NCBI GenBank assembly: GCA_042217615.1
Contig: JBDGSI010000040.1
Coordinates: forward strand, 1 to 28,622
From: Candidatus Nanohalobium sp.
GTDB lineage: Archaea; Nanohalarchaeota; Nanosalinia; Nanosalinales; Nanosalinaceae
Length of the DNA stretch: 28,622 nt
Direction: 5' to 3'
Positions 1,136-25,951 of this stretch are shown in pieces. A program made the position numbers and the translations under genes. A model generated the notes under the pieces. It was given only the letters and a program-made list of their open reading frames with translations. It did no database searches and was not told where the DNA came from. Position 1 is the stretch's first letter. The number at the start of each line of letters is the position of its first letter.

Positions 1136-3217
1136 ATGGGAACAGTCTCCGCCTTTGAGTTCGCATCTTCTACACCTGAAAACGGTACAGGGCTCTCGAC
1201 TCCGGTCACAATCAACGTGACAGGAACCGGAGTAACTCAGGGAGAGATGTCTGCAGTCTGGGGGCCTAAAGGAGACTTTAGCAGCGGTGGAGGTACTAGT
1301 AATATACAGGTTCGCGGAGGATCTGCATGGTTCCAGTGGAATGCTTCACGTAATAACAACAATAGATGGGTTGTCAGGGTTTCAAACGGAACACATTCTA
1401 TCCAGAATGTTTACAAGCTGGATAACAAGGCTCCCAAGATTAAAGGCCTTGATCTACCTGACAGGTTGAACAGTGATTTTGGACCTGTCAAGTTTAATGT
1501 TGAGGAGCAGTATGGCAGTATTGATTTTGTTGAGGTCCGTGTTAAGGACAGTGATGGAGAGGTTGTGGATAGTAAGGAGTTCTGCAGCGATTCCGAAGAT
1601 AAAGATAGCTGCAGTGTTTCCTATGAGCTTCCAACAGGTGGTATGAGTAGCGGTAATGAGTATGAGTTAGAGGTTGAGAGAAATGATTCGTTTGGTGAAA
1701 AAGGTCGTCGTCCTTACAGCGAGGAGTTTACTTATGATAACAAGTATAAAGGAGATGAGAATCCTTCTGTTAAGCCCGGGCCTCAGGTCTTCAGAGTTGA
1801 TGACGGTAGTGAAGAGATCAGGATAGGTGTGACTTTGAATGGAAAAAGTGAGGGGTCGGAGATCTCTGTAGTGTGTAAGTATCAAGGCGGGAAAATTGGT
1901 ACTTCTTCGTCCAAGTACCTCAGCAGCGATGAAGAAGAGACCTTTGACTGTACGATGGTGCCGGAGGATTACGGTAATATTGGAATGGATTTCAAAGCAG
2001 TTCTAAAGGATGAAGCCGGGAACACAGAGCCTGTTGAAGTAGGAACATACTACTTTGACTTCTACCCGCCTAAACTGGAGAACTTGAGCGCGGTTGTAGG
2101 CATATTCAACAGCGACTTCCAGCTATCCTATGACGGGTACGATCCAGGAGAGACAGAGATAGGTAAAATACACTACCAGCTAAACGACAAAACTTTAGAC
2201 CTGGATAACGGATACAATTCAACGGACGCAGATGGAGATTTCAAAGTAAATACTGAAGGCCTTTCGAAAGGCGCCCACACTGTTTATGCCTGGGCGGTTG
2301 ACAAGGCAGGACGTGTAAGCAGCAGGAAAAAGTTCACCTTTGATTTCAGGCCTTCTGCAACTCCTAAAGCAGCTATAAGCACTGGTAACAAGTTGAGTAC
2401 TGTTGCGGGAGAGGATGTTATTGTTAAATCCTCTGTCAAGAATACAGGAAGGCTTTATATCAGCAGCATGGATCTAAGTCTTGTTTCCAGTATTTCAAAC
2501 CAGTCCAGGTCTTTGAAAGGTTTGAAGCCAGGTGAAAATGTTTCTGAGTACTTCTCTATTGATACGGAGGAGAAAGATCTTGGAGTACACAAGTTGGCGT
2601 TGAAGACTCAAAGCCCTGATGCAAGTGAAACAGTTAAACTTGTTGTAAAGGCTAACAAAGATCAAAAAAGTTCTATCAAGGATAAATACGAACGGTTTTC
2701 GGAAAGGTACAGGGATTTGAAAGAGAACGTAACCCGGTTGAATCAAAGCGGTTTATCCCAGGAAAGAAGGGAAAGACTTGGTTCCAATACCTCAGAGTTC
2801 TTCCAGAGAATGGAGGCAGCTGTCAAGGCCTTTGAAAAAGGGCGTTTCTACAGAGTTGATTCAATTCTTGAAAATATTCAACCGCTTTATGAGAAGGCCT
2901 CAGAAAGTTACAGGCAGGTTAAGAAGGAGCATGAAGCAGCTGAGTTCAACCGTTTGATCGGTTTGTTCCTGCTTGTTGGAATAGGTTTAACCGGTTCAGG
3001 TGTAGCCTATGTGGCCTGGTTCAGCGAAGAGTACTACATCGATATAGAGGCCTTGAAGGAGATTGACTGGCTTGAAAAAGGTATAGAGTTTGTGGAGGAG
3101 AAAGTAGGTCAGTACGAGTTAAGCTTGGAGCCTTTGGAAGGCCTTCTTGACGGCCTGGGAGAGGCTGTTGAGGAGGAAGAGGAGGAGTTGGAGCAAGGTT
3201 TCCAGGGTTTCAGCTAA
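1136..3217 (+). CDS. Membrane-anchored surface (glyco)protein: Ig-like repeats, CARDB/NEW3-like domain, coiled coil, C-terminal TM helix, acidic tail; true start probably upstream (~1079)
   Basis: Beta-rich repeats with D-x-x-(A/P)-P and D-x-A-G-(N/R) motifs. VKNTGRLY...LKPGENVS is CARDB-like. TM segment LIGLFLLVGIGLTGSGVAYVAWF; many N-x-S/T sequons. The upstream in-frame sequence completes a signal peptide. Confidence 0.75.
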   Translation: MGTVSAFEFASSTPENGTGLSTPVTINVTGTGVTQGEMSAVWGPKGDFSSGGGTSNIQVRGGSAWFQWNASRNNNNRWVVRVSNGTHSIQNVYKLDNKAPKIKGLDLPDRLNSDFGPVKFNVEEQYGSIDFVEVRVKDSDGEVVDSKEFCSDSEDKDSCSVSYELPTGGMSSGNEYELEVERNDSFGEKGRRPYSEEFTYDNKYKGDENPSVKPGPQVFRVDDGSEEIRIGVTLNGKSEGSEISVVCKYQGGKIGTSSSKYLSSDEEETFDCTMVPEDYGNIGMDFKAVLKDEAGNTEPVEVGTYYFDFYPPKLENLSAVVGIFNSDFQLSYDGYDPGETEIGKIHYQLNDKTLDLDNGYNSTDADGDFKVNTEGLSKGAHTVYAWAVDKAGRVSSRKKFTFDFRPSATPKAAISTGNKLSTVAGEDVIVKSSVKNTGRLYISSMDLSLVSSISNQSRSLKGLKPGENVSEYFSIDTEEKDLGVHKLALKTQSPDASETVKLVVKANKDQKSSIKDKYERFSERYRDLKENVTRLNQSGLSQERRERLGSNTSEFFQRMEAAVKAFEKGRFYRVDSILENIQPLYEKASESYRQVKKEHEAAEFNRLIGLFLLVGIGLTGSGVAYVAWFSEEYYIDIEALKEIDWLEKGIEFVEEKVGQYELSLEPLEGLLDGLGEAVEEEEEELEQGFQGFS

Positions 3218-3234
3218 GAACTCCTCTCTTAAAT

Positions 3235-3579
3235 TTAGTTTATTTTTTCTGTGTCTTTGAACTGTTCCTGGAGGATTCCTTTGTCTCTTGCTGTTTGAAC
3301 AGTCTGTGATATTTCTGTGGAGAAGTCACGGTCCTGTGCGGCTTTTGCTACTGCATCTCTCAACGTGATTTCTATCTGAGGATCTTTTTTAAGCTTCTCT
3401 ACTATTGAATGGTTTGCACGGTTTCCTGTAAGGTACTGGCTGACTGCTGGCTGGGTTATACCCATTTTATCCGCTATTTCCTTCTGTTTCAAACCGTATT
3501 CTTTCCTGAGCTGGGAGGCCATAATGCTTCTGATCGCAGGCAGCACTTCCTCAGTTATTACCTCGCTTTCAAACCTCAT
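3235..3579 (-). CDS. XRE/Cro-type HTH transcriptional regulator (archaeal COG2522-like)
   Basis: EVLPAIRSIMASQLRKEYGLKQKEIADKMGITQPAVSQYL is a typical HTH with the TQPAVSQY recognition helix. Confidence 0.85.
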   Translation of the reverse strand: MRFESEVITEEVLPAIRSIMASQLRKEYGLKQKEIADKMGITQPAVSQYLTGNRANHSIVEKLKKDPQIEITLRDAVAKAAQDRDFSTEISQTVQTARDKGILQEQFKDTEKIN

Positions 3580-24087: not shown

Positions 24088-24139
24088 TTGTAGATTTTTC
24101 ACCTCAAGTATAGATTAAATCTGCCGAAAAAGGCAGAAC

Positions 24140-25951
24140 TCATTTTGAACCCTCCGAACCGAAAGGAGAGTATTTACGGCCTCCTCCCTCGTAAAACTTT
24201 CCAAACATCTCCACGTAGTGAAGACGGATTCCCTGAAGGAAGCCTTCTATGATTTTGATAAATGTGTTAAATACATGTCCTACCACAAGCACTAAGGTTC
24301 CTGCTGCAAATCCGAAAAGGCCTCCTGCGGCGAACGCTGTATCAGCTATACTGTTTACAACTGCTGCAAGAGATACTGCAGCTACTGAAACACCGAATAT
24401 CCTGAGGTAGGATAAAATATTGGACATTAAGGAGGGGATCTCTACAATTCCCTCTACTCCTTCTCCCAGTGCCAGACCAATGACTGATAACAGTATTACA
24501 GGGACTGCTGCTGAAGGCCCTTGAAGAATCCAGAGAGCTGCACCGATCTCCAATGCTATCCAGCTTCCTTTCTCCAAGACAGCTTCTTTAACACCGTGCT
24601 GAGAGTACTCGTTGTAAGCTCCGATAAGGAATCCCATGTTTACGTGGACAAGGCCTATTATTGCAGAGTAAGTGAATACCTTGCCCAGATGGTGGGCGCG
24701 GTGGAACAGCACAGGTATATGGCTGAAGAACTCTAATCCATACTGAGCTGCAAGCACTGAGTCCTCACCGAATATCATGAAGCCGAACGCATCTCCAAAG
24801 GCAAGGCCGAAAAGCATTGTAGCAAACGAAGCATACATCAAAGACTTGAAAATCTGTTCTCCTCCGTCAAGAAGCTTGTAACCTCCATAGAAAACAGCTA
24901 AAGTTGTCAAACCATATCCAAAATCACCGATCATAAAGCCGAAGAACAATGGGAACGTCAGGAAAAGCACGTTCGAAGGATCAACTTCATTCGGCTTAGG
25001 AACAGCCATTAAATCAGTTAAAGACTCGAAAGGCTGCACAGGTCCAAAATTATCATGCTGCACAGGAGCGTTCTCAGCCTCTCCATCCTCCTGCTGAATA
25101 TGAACCTTGCCTTCAGCACTGTCCGCAACACGTTCCTCAAGCATTTCAAAACTCTCACAAGGCACCCATCCCTCACAGATAAAAGCTCTATCGGTAGTAC
25201 CAAAGCTTAAAGGAGCCTCAACCTTCTCAATCCTTTCAGAAAGATAATCCTCAACATAAGAAAGCCTGCCACCCCACTCAGAACCCAGAGATTCAAAATC
25301 ATCCTCAACATTCTTCAAATCCTCTTCAAGGCCTTCAATCTCGGATTCAATTCTTTCAACAACGCTTTCAGGCCTTCCAGACCTTAAATCATTAGGAATC
25401 TGGAAAGACTCTCTTACACAACCGGATAAAGCCTTGGAAACTTTCTCAGAAACCTCGCTGTCAAAAACCACTACAGAGGCCTTCTTACCTTCAAAAATAT
25501 CAAAACGGTCGGTGTCAACAACTTCTCTAAAACGTTTCTCATCCAGAGAAGCAACGGAAAAACCAAGTCTTCCAGAACTGTCCAGCTCTGTTAAATCAAC
25601 GTCACAACCCTTCAACTTCTTGTAAAAATCTTTCTCCTCCTCAAGGCCTTCAATCTGCCTCTTAATATTCTCCTTCTCTTCGATGAGGTTGTTTACCTTG
25701 CTCCTCACTTCTTCGAACTTCTCTTCTACCTCATTTACTGAGATTTCTTCAGTTTCTTCTGCTTCAGGTAGTTTAGAGAGAACTGATCTAACATCTACCA
25801 GTAACTGTGAAAGCTCCTCCGCCTCATCTCCTGGAGAACCTGTTTCAAGCTCTCCGCCGTATTCATCAATATGTAGAAGACCTAAATCGTGAAGAGAATC
25901 AACTACTTCCTCAAGCTGTGTCTTGGGAGCGGTAATAGAAATTTTCGTCAT
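24140..25951 (-). CDS. atpI: A/V-type ATP synthase subunit I (a)
   Basis: FPLFFGFMIGDFGYG, SNILSYLRI (essential Arg) and LQGIRLHYVEMFGKFYEGGGRKYSPF. The start may lie 5 codons upstream, at ATA 25966. Confidence 0.96.
   Translation of the reverse strand: MTKISITAPKTQLEEVVDSLHDLGLLHIDEYGGELETGSPGDEAEELSQLLVDVRSVLSKLPEAEETEEISVNEVEEKFEEVRSKVNNLIEEKENIKRQIEGLEEEKDFYKKLKGCDVDLTELDSSGRLGFSVASLDEKRFREVVDTDRFDIFEGKKASVVVFDSEVSEKVSKALSGCVRESFQIPNDLRSGRPESVVERIESEIEGLEEDLKNVEDDFESLGSEWGGRLSYVEDYLSERIEKVEAPLSFGTTDRAFICEGWVPCESFEMLEERVADSAEGKVHIQQEDGEAENAPVQHDNFGPVQPFESLTDLMAVPKPNEVDPSNVLFLTFPLFFGFMIGDFGYGLTTLAVFYGGYKLLDGGEQIFKSLMYASFATMLFGLAFGDAFGFMIFGEDSVLAAQYGLEFFSHIPVLFHRAHHLGKVFTYSAIIGLVHVNMGFLIGAYNEYSQHGVKEAVLEKGSWIALEIGAALWILQGPSAAVPVILLSVIGLALGEGVEGIVEIPSLMSNILSYLRIFGVSVAAVSLAAVVNSIADTAFAAGGLFGFAAGTLVLVVGHVFNTFIKIIEGFLQGIRLHYVEMFGKFYEGGGRKYSPFGSEGSK

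Follow-up and report, generated by a model that had tools for sequence, protein, structure and literature searches.

Here, we show that the keto skew of the DNA, the excess of G and T over A and C, flips at the six-base palindrome AGGCCT in nanohaloarchaea that carry this word in very high numbers, the DNA being A/C-rich to the left of the motif and G/T-rich to its right. The starting point was one whole contig of 28.6 kb (C35, hereafter the window) from the genome of a Candidatus Nanohalobium sp. (G000; 875 kb in 89 contigs, 81% complete, 44.7% G+C), for which it had originally been predicted that switch points in the skew coincide with AGGCCT sites. The statistical link between AGGCCT and the skew flip is real, strong and replicated, and the effect is confined to genomes with hyper-abundant AGGCCT. 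As the flip is largest at the positions under the weakest protein selection, its origin is mutational, and we conclude that it is a mutational footprint and not a product of protein selection.

Around 2,419 AGGCCT sites of G000, the left and right sides have a raw keto skew of -0.040 and +0.030, respectively, at a distance of 10-200 bp, and the difference has faded by 400-600 bp. Genes were then called crudely by taking the longest open reading frame first, and the baseline, a separate mean for each codon position on each gene strand, was removed to give the residual skew. With this correction, the skew changes from -0.085 to +0.059 at third codon positions and by about ±0.05 in spacers, compared to about ±0.02 at codon positions 1 and 2, which corresponds to a 4-5 times larger effect at third positions and in spacers. 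Per site, the right-minus-left difference at third positions is +0.121 in G000 (95% confidence interval (CI) 0.108-0.134, from a 20-kb block bootstrap). The test on which the original prediction hung, the averaging of third-position keto skew over all genomic AGGCCT sites, thus came out in its favour, with a sign flip at the motif and flat profiles for AGCGCT, TGGCCA and eight more palindromes. In the raw profile of G000, TTTAAA flipped in the same direction but more weakly (about +0.06 at 10-50 bp). To express the strength of the effect, we used K, which was obtained from a regression of third-position skew on left-minus-right site counts. Among 6-bp palindromes, AGGCCT reaches a z-score of +51 in G000 and +48 in the relative G001, compared to a standard deviation of about 2.5 and a maximum of 8 for the others, which speaks against the chance coincidence that had originally been raised as a caveat. 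The same picture emerged from a scan of all ~2,060 hexamer classes, which was run by genome: the AGGCCT family (AGGCCT, AAGGCC, GAGGCC and similar words) was the sole outlier in four genomes, with z-scores of +20 to +26 in G000 and of +20, +10.7 and +9.0 in the three others over a background standard deviation of 1.2-1.7.

The flip could not be traced back to the arrangement of genes. The keto skew of the coding strand is only -0.025, so that gene orientation is unable to produce it, and sites lying deep within genes, flanked on either side by 500 bp or more of the same gene, keep the full step. A gradient along genes was rejected as well, since moving the sites to equal relative places in genes of like length gave K values of -0.014 to +0.005, compared to +0.026 to +0.058 for the real sites. 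In addition, a palindrome has no orientation, so that errors in the gene calls cannot make a difference between its left and right sides. Small flips of the same sign (K about 0.02-0.04) were observed for AT-rich palindromes, namely TTTAAA and TTATAA in G000 and G001 and AAATTT in G021, where TAATTA and ATATAT also belong to this group. These flips persist after controlling for AGGCCT and may reflect a promoter or gene-start effect.

To see how widely the flip occurs, we compared further nanohaloarchaea, three of them rich in AGGCCT (G001, G003 and G019) and one, G021, complete and motif-poor. G001 belongs to the same genus as G000 and is closed, and its DNA is only 73% identical (720 kb of 1,119 kb were analysed); no genome is closer to G000 than this 73%, which bars the polarising of recent substitutions. 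G003 and G019 represent two further genera, and G019 is the cultivated strain Ca. Nanohalovita haloferacivicina BNXNv (chromosome of 1,046,959 bp; specificity data from 1-400 kb). The flip recurs in G001, G003 and G019, and hence in three genera and one cultivated strain. In G021, with 97 AGGCCT sites, no flip was detected (K of -0.000 ± 0.006; right-minus-left +0.013, CI -0.056 to +0.084), and no hexamer class stands out in its scan. What G021 does possess is a two-arm, replichore-like keto skew at third positions of about ±0.06, with a cumulative minimum near 870.8 kb and a maximum near 349.5 kb. The ratio of its T-A to its G-C component is 2.1:1 and matches that of the AGGCCT effect. The minimum of the cumulative skew conventionally marks the origin, and by this convention the strand 3' of AGGCCT resembles a leading strand. 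The specificity in G019 is looser, as AGGCCN with N other than T is nearly as common as AGGCCT and GGCC without the A/T flanks still shows a small flip (K = +0.021 ± 0.003).

The window, in which the coincidence was first noted, carries archaeal genes, including those for A-type ATP synthase subunits and a tRNA methyltransferase according to Pfam. All ten AGGCCT sites that had been singled out at skew switches are indeed A/C-rich on the left and G/T-rich on the right over 300 bp, with raw values from -0.013 to -0.393 and from +0.020 to +0.220, respectively. They are listed below with the raw keto skew over 300 bp on the left and right side, followed by the third-position residual on both sides, together with the cluster to which two of them belong and the full set of sites.

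2257..2262, AGGCCT inside the plus-strand gene 1136-3217; raw -0.073 and +0.060, residual -0.107 and +0.253
5162..5167, AGGCCT inside the major facilitator superfamily (MFS) transporter gene 4696-5886 (plus strand, Pfam MFS_1); raw -0.053 and +0.120, residual -0.307 and +0.093
5241..5246, AGGCCT clustered with the site at 5162; raw -0.013 and +0.100, residual -0.287 and +0.113
5148, 5162 and 5241, AGGCCT cluster in the MFS transporter gene 4696-5886 (plus strand)
9941..9946, AGGCCT inside the minus-strand gene 9255-10007; raw -0.100 and +0.213, residual -0.238 and +0.186
10614..10619, AGGCCT in the divergent spacer between genes 10015-10485 (minus strand) and 10626-12269 (plus strand); raw -0.027 and +0.113, residual -0.126 and +0.298
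13398..13403, AGGCCT deep in the 901-aa gene 12283-14988 (plus strand); raw -0.200 and +0.220, residual -0.307 and +0.573, among the sharpest flips of the window
15797..15802, AGGCCT in the divergent spacer between genes 14994-15788 (minus strand) and 15886-17181 (plus strand); raw -0.113 and +0.133, residual -0.214 and +0.526
17181..17186, AGGCCT at the 3' end of gene 15886-17181 (plus strand), at a convergent junction; raw -0.393 and +0.087, residual -0.647 and +0.371
21587..21592, AGGCCT inside the gene for A-type ATP synthase subunit A, 20083-21846 (minus strand, Pfam ATP-synt_ab); raw -0.087 and +0.080, residual -0.138 and +0.117
25644..25649, AGGCCT inside the gene for ATPase subunit I, 24140-25951 (minus strand); raw -0.213 and +0.020, residual -0.358 and -0.118, the weakest of the ten
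34..28538, all 88 AGGCCT sites of the window

At the weakest site, at 25644, the third-position step is present, yet the right side is still negative. When all 86 usable sites of the window were considered, the right side exceeded the left in 73% (46% at random positions), and a negative left side was combined with a positive right side in 36% (17% at random positions). Across 250-bp bins of the window, the number of sites within 400 bp on the left minus that on the right correlates with the residual keto skew (r = 0.49 for all positions and 0.52 for third positions).

The shape of the effect is simple and quantitative. It starts within ~10 bp of the motif edge, and the deconvolved kernel is flat-topped, with a height of 0.10 in G000, 0.08 in G001 and 0.05 in G003 and G019, falls to half by ~400-450 bp and is gone by ~700 bp. 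From one site to the next, the skew declines from positive to negative values and passes zero midway. A blocking or 'replicon' model, in which the influence of a site ends at the next one, was hinted at by ramps that scale with the gap; it was rejected when gaps were stratified by the number of sites behind them, and an additive model fits. The third-position skew before a long gap is 0.07, 0.14, 0.21 and 0.26 with 0, 1, 2 and 3 or more further sites within 400 bp behind, respectively, so that AGGCCT contributes about 0.07 per site and the contributions sum over sites. The response is linear in the left-minus-right site count, ranging from -0.33 to about +0.2. The T-A part of the skew is about twice the G-C part (2.0-2.3:1). 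Sites that match the preferred form AAGGCCTT on both flanks have an effect of 0.114, sites with one matching flank 0.067 and sites with neither 0.036. Due to this threefold difference between the two extremes, we propose that the same recognition preference lies behind the abundance of the motif and the skew. The effect size is equal in plus- and minus-strand genes of G000 and G001, and in closed G001 both the left and the right effect are present in all nine 80-kb domains; a dependence on fork direction or transcription was thus not seen in either comparison. A symmetric shift of the G+C content at third positions (GC3) near sites, as expected from gene conversion, was likewise not evident, the slopes being small and inconsistent in sign. 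Oriented non-palindromic words show context effects of ±0.02-0.05.

The motif itself is extraordinarily common. The window contains 88 copies, compared to 8.8 expected and a highest count of 16 in 100 shuffles, which is 10 times the shuffle expectation. Genome-wide, G000 carries 2,691 copies (3.1 per kb), 16 times the expectation from composition, which makes AGGCCT its top-ranking hexamer, while the runner-up palindrome reaches 492 copies. The copies lie in all three codon phases (350/836/1123) and are denser in spacers (3.95 per kb) than in coding sequence (2.94 per kb), and their extended consensus is roughly TTnAAGGCCTTnAA. Their spacing is evener than random: gaps of 6-12 bp number 11 instead of the expected 53 and gaps of 12-25 bp 61 instead of 111, with a deficit below 50 bp and above 800 bp and an excess at 100-400 bp. 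At orthologous positions of G000 and G001 (231 kb aligned), 57% of the AGGCCT copies are identical, compared to 20 ± 6% for hexamers in general, and no other hexamer scores higher. Judged by this alignment, the sites are long-lived, which gives the skew time to accumulate. The skew is nearly equally strong at conserved and non-conserved sites, so that this test for an effect of age was uninformative. Within one family, the number of copies per ~1-Mb genome varies from 73 to 4,131 and is patchy across genera. The target of a restriction-modification system is avoided or neutral in its host; in G000, AGGCCT is the commonest hexamer. At the other end of the range, G017 has 73 copies of AGGCCT and 491 of the reversed word and G021 97 and 344, respectively, and GGCC as a whole is scarce in G021 (705 copies in 973 kb). 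Both genomes encode a C5-cytosine methyltransferase (PF00145) of ~340 aa, and the low number of AGGCCT copies in them resembles the usual avoidance of a restriction site.

We propose, with about even confidence, that AGGCCT is a fixed point at which a strand-specific DNA transaction starts and from which it proceeds in both directions over ~400-500 bases. Under this model, AGGCCT, in its best form AAGGCCTT, would be recognised by a sequence-specific factor, and a nick or break at the motif would be followed by 5'->3' strand replacement, either by repair-type or by recombination-associated synthesis. On each strand, G and T would be gained and A and C lost 3' of the motif, which is the leading-strand bias of a replication fork. 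The gain of G and T might go back to G:T mispairs in the newly made strand, or C and A might be deaminated in the strand that is displaced or unpaired, and the same factor might also drive the hyper-abundance of AGGCCT. The most economical interpretation would be a nick or break with replacement of ~400-500 nt of the strand on each side. The original prediction that nicking, priming or repair synthesis starts bidirectionally at the palindrome agrees with the origin-like polarity, the location at silent sites, the additivity and the replichore-matching spectrum, and falls short in that no gene tested so far tracks the trait.

Several observations weigh against a start point of this kind. A process that terminates at the motif and leaves its mark on the opposite strand would produce an identical footprint, and the flip at HIP1 (GCGATCGC), the highly iterated palindrome (HIP) of cyanobacteria, has the opposite polarity (see below), so that polarity does not map simply to one mechanism. 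Tracts of 400-500 nt far exceed those of known short-patch or very-short-patch repair. Half-sites (AGGCC/GGCCT, AGGCCV) show a weaker flip, and a pooled regression hinted at one-sided action, which was lost once distance bins and far-field context were included. Moreover, when third-position skew was taken in 300-bp bins, the site model accounted for only part of its excess variance, namely 14-16% in G000 and G001, 7% in G003 and 2% in G019. Not every skew switch has an AGGCCT, and not every AGGCCT shows a visible switch. The further suggestion that one mechanism would explain both the palindrome and the blockwise skew is an overstatement, as AGGCCT accounts for only ~15% of the local skew variance in G000 and G021, without any motif effect, is equally blockwise; its excess skew variance is at least as large and has no motif anchor. 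Most of the blockwise skew in the window thus has another source than AGGCCT, which forms one well-defined part of it. The search for a responsible gene points in the same direction. C5 methyltransferases (PF00145) were found in none of G000-G003, G019 and G023 and were present in the motif-poor G017 and G021, no N4/N6 methyltransferase (PF01555) scored over the cut-off in closed G001 and G003, the very-short-patch repair endonuclease Vsr (PF03852) was found in 0 of 41 genomes, and NucS was present in all five genomes searched, three of them motif-rich and two motif-poor. Four candidates, a Toprim protein of 381 aa, an SMC-like protein of 741 aa, a 355-aa protein and an EndoIV-like protein of 901 aa, were compared with 41 genomes, and none of them tracks the trait.

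The candidates were sought with a positives-only screen, in which the proteins of G000 and G001 were compared by tblastn with G003, G019 and the complete G021, the one complete negative genome used, and the hits were annotated with Pfam, NCBIfam and PADLOC. The screen yielded surface and transport proteins and proteins of unknown function. Searches with PF02086 gave no match, and PF02384 matched strongly in G003 and G019, also in motif-poor G021, and with only 23 bits in G001. Among these four families (PF00145, PF01555, PF02086 and PF02384), no DNA methyltransferase common to the AGGCCT-rich genomes was found, and a weak PF01555 match on contig C82 proved to be an RNA methyltransferase. HhH-GPD glycosylases are present in 1-4 copies in every genome. 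Compared with G021, the T:G-derived near-cognate words AGGTCT/AGACCT and AGGCTT/AAGCCT, whose depletion would be a sign of very-short-patch repair, have 0.7-1.3 times the density, with the exception of AGACCT/AGGTCT in G003 (0.39). Overall, no nuclease, methyltransferase or other gene among those tested tracks the trait. The 901-aa EndoIV-like protein, encoded in the window at 12283-14988 on the plus strand, matches no Pfam family, and homologues occur in 37 of the 41 genomes from its order, which identifies it as a conserved core gene. The Toprim protein (G001:134707-135852, corresponding to L008:14707-15852, and G000 C7:3006-4124) occurs in 28 of 41 relatives and was not found in G021 and G015, both of which are complete.

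Other explanations for the footprint have to be considered. AGGCCT might be an uptake or recombination tag, in which case DNA bearing the motif would be preferred for uptake or recombination and would enter as single strands starting from the motif. These would be damaged by deamination of C and A, a G/T excess would result 3' of the motif, and the preference would spread the motif by molecular drive. Such a tag would fit the hyper-abundance without a methyltransferase common to the AGGCCT-rich genomes, the patchy occurrence of the trait across genera of one family, the conservation of AGGCCT above all other hexamers, the even spacing (11 gaps of 6-12 bp versus 53, few above 800 bp) and the additivity of the footprint, independent of fork or gene direction. 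However, a symmetric GC shift near sites might then be expected and none was consistent, and we know neither of sequence-specific DNA uptake in archaea nor of a comparable skew around bacterial uptake sequences, which makes this explanation an unlikely one. Replicative starts, either primase and Okazaki starts or thousands of micro-origins, would turn the skew into a small-scale leading/lagging asymmetry. They are suggested by the origin-like polarity, by a T-A to G-C ratio equal to that of the replichore-scale skew of G021 and by the ramping down of the skew between neighbours to zero midway. Primase or Okazaki starts on the lagging strand only, however, predict a one-sided effect in regions that are replicated mainly in one direction, and left and right effects were found in 9 of 9 80-kb domains of G001; in addition, the effect passes additively through intervening sites instead of stopping at the next 'origin', its reach is fixed at ~0.4-0.5 kb, however far away the next site lies, and 2,691 such starts would have to exist in 875 kb. 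We therefore consider replicative starts quite improbable.

It is also conceivable that AGGCCT launches short divergent transcripts or R-loops, in which the single-stranded non-template strand gains G and T. The polarity would be right, with G and T enriched in the non-template strand 3' of the site, and the TATA-like words TTTAAA and TTATAA show their small same-sign flip in G000 and G001. Nevertheless, the effect is equal for both gene orientations and deep in genes of these two genomes, AGGCCT has 3-4 times the per-site effect of the TATA-like words in G000 and ~2 times in G001, and the archaeal promoter consists of a TATA box and a B recognition element (BRE), which AGGCCT does not resemble; we see very little chance that transcription is the cause. 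Finally, there might be no site-specific process at all, and the flip might be a by-product of motif placement with respect to gene position, codon context or composition, or of errors in the gene calls. The gene calls are crude, the local skew is very heterogeneous in all genomes including G021 (the excess standard deviation of third-position keto skew in 300-bp bins is 0.18-0.31 in G000, G001, G003, G019 and G021), and the context effects of oriented non-palindromic words are of the order of ±0.02-0.05. This is hard to reconcile with the fact that annotation errors cannot create a side difference around an unoriented palindrome, that the annotation-free raw profile already flips, that the effect is present in spacers and that it falls to ~0 when gene positions are permuted. 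Furthermore, the halves of the motif itself (AGG and CCT) are biased opposite to the flanks, AGGCCT is without effect in G021, and its family is the sole outlier of ~2,060 hexamer classes in four genomes. A by-product of this sort is in our view extremely unlikely.

Strand asymmetry in prokaryotes is normally read as replication direction and, more weakly, as transcription. To our knowledge, a short palindrome has not been described before as setting the strand asymmetry around it, with contributions that add up and reach over less than a kilobase. A literature search revealed no paper that joins AGGCCT with nanohaloarchaea and none that joins highly iterated palindromes with skew. The footprint described here is a new kind of genome feature: a 6-bp word sets silent-site asymmetry in a quantitative, additive, sub-kilobase manner, and only in lineages in which AGGCCT is hyper-abundant. 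As a consequence, skew-based origin prediction and codon-usage analyses are confounded in AGGCCT-rich genomes. If a site-specific DNA transaction is indeed the cause, a highly iterated palindrome, which belongs to a class of words without accepted function, would have a functional read-out for the first time, and the process would be so frequent that it shapes a large part of the neutral genome sequence. The cause can be tested, since Ca. Nanohalovita haloferacivicina BNXNv carries the trait and has been cultivated. More tentatively, one might speculate that hyper-abundant palindromes in general are start or stop sites of a nick-and-resynthesise or strand-exchange system that writes its own word together with a local mutation spectrum. 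AGGCCT would be the origin-like and apparently methylation-free form, and HIP1 of cyanobacteria and ACGGCCGT of a Chloroflexota genome would be forms of opposite polarity. This wider idea is doubtful as it stands; if true, it would offer a mechanistic handle on the HIP1 puzzle, which is roughly 30 years old.

Among known systems, the footprint is reminiscent of the skew jumps at replication origins, including bacterial oriC, archaeal origins and the upward jumps that bound the skew N-domains of mammalian genomes. In both cases, the DNA is A/C-rich on the left and G/T-rich on the right, with a change from lagging- to leading-strand skew across the site, and the mutational footprint is strongest at silent sites and ramps down between sites, with a T-A to G-C ratio like that of the replichore skew of G021. 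However, a chromosome has one or few origins, whereas G000 has 2,691 AGGCCT sites in 875 kb, each of which acts independently. The asymmetry of an origin continues until the neighbouring fork is met, whereas the reach of AGGCCT is fixed at ~0.4-0.5 kb and additive, and origins are marked by initiator-binding repeats and not by a palindrome of 6-8 bp. Repeats bound by the initiator (Orc1/Cdc6) next to an initiator gene would be implausible for thousands of 6-bp sites within genes. A sequence-specific nick with resynthesis of one strand, as proposed here for AGGCCT, is known from very-short-patch repair in E. coli (Dcm/Vsr at CCWGG) and from MutH at GATC, and very-short-patch repair enriches its own target word. 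Such repair requires Vsr and a C5 methyltransferase for the same word, whereas Vsr is present in 0 of 41 genomes and PF00145 was not found in closed G001, G003 and G019, and its tracts are below ~10-20 nt, compared to ~400-500 nt for AGGCCT. We know of no local skew around CCWGG or GATC.

Chi sites and DNA uptake sequences are, like AGGCCT, short over-represented words, and they direct the start of a strand-specific transaction. Uptake sequences, known from Neisseria and Haemophilus, owe their spread to molecular drive and lie at even intervals, and AGGCCT likewise combines over-representation with even spacing. Chi and uptake words differ in being asymmetric, with an orientation that follows the replichore, whereas AGGCCT is palindromic; RecBCD and AddAB are bacterial, and no compositional footprint around Chi or uptake words is known to us. 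Local, intense nucleotide skew inside genes, with recoded silent positions and a link to gene conversion, has been described for the elements termed GRINS (2021, PMC8256042). GRINS are repeated elements in particular gene families, mainly polyketide synthases, whereas the AGGCCT footprint occurs genome-wide on a 6-bp word in unrelated genes.

As a word, AGGCCT resembles HIP1 and the other HIPs of cyanobacteria. It is also a short palindrome, is 12-20 times over-represented in all codon phases and in spacers, and is conserved beyond its neighbours (57% versus 20 ± 6% for hexamers in general); it differs in being archaeal and denser, with 3-4 sites per kb. HIPs have been linked to cognate methyltransferases, and a model of methyl-directed nicking has been proposed (Elhai, 2015, PMC4390886), whereas no methyltransferase common to the AGGCCT-rich genomes was found. 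Skew is not mentioned in two papers on HIPs (Elhai, 2015, PMC4390886; Xu et al., 2018, PMC5861425). We also looked at 379 HIP1 sites in 33 HIP1-rich, cyanobacteria-like loci (among L139-L218), which were chosen by G+C and HIP1 density. The silent-site keto skew flips at HIP1 as well (K = -0.038 ± 0.004; right-minus-left -0.069, CI -0.090 to -0.048; control palindromes with a z standard deviation of 1.1), with a reach of ~300 bp. The DNA is G/T-rich on the left and A/C-rich on the right of HIP1, and its flip is thus of opposite polarity to that of AGGCCT and about half its size.

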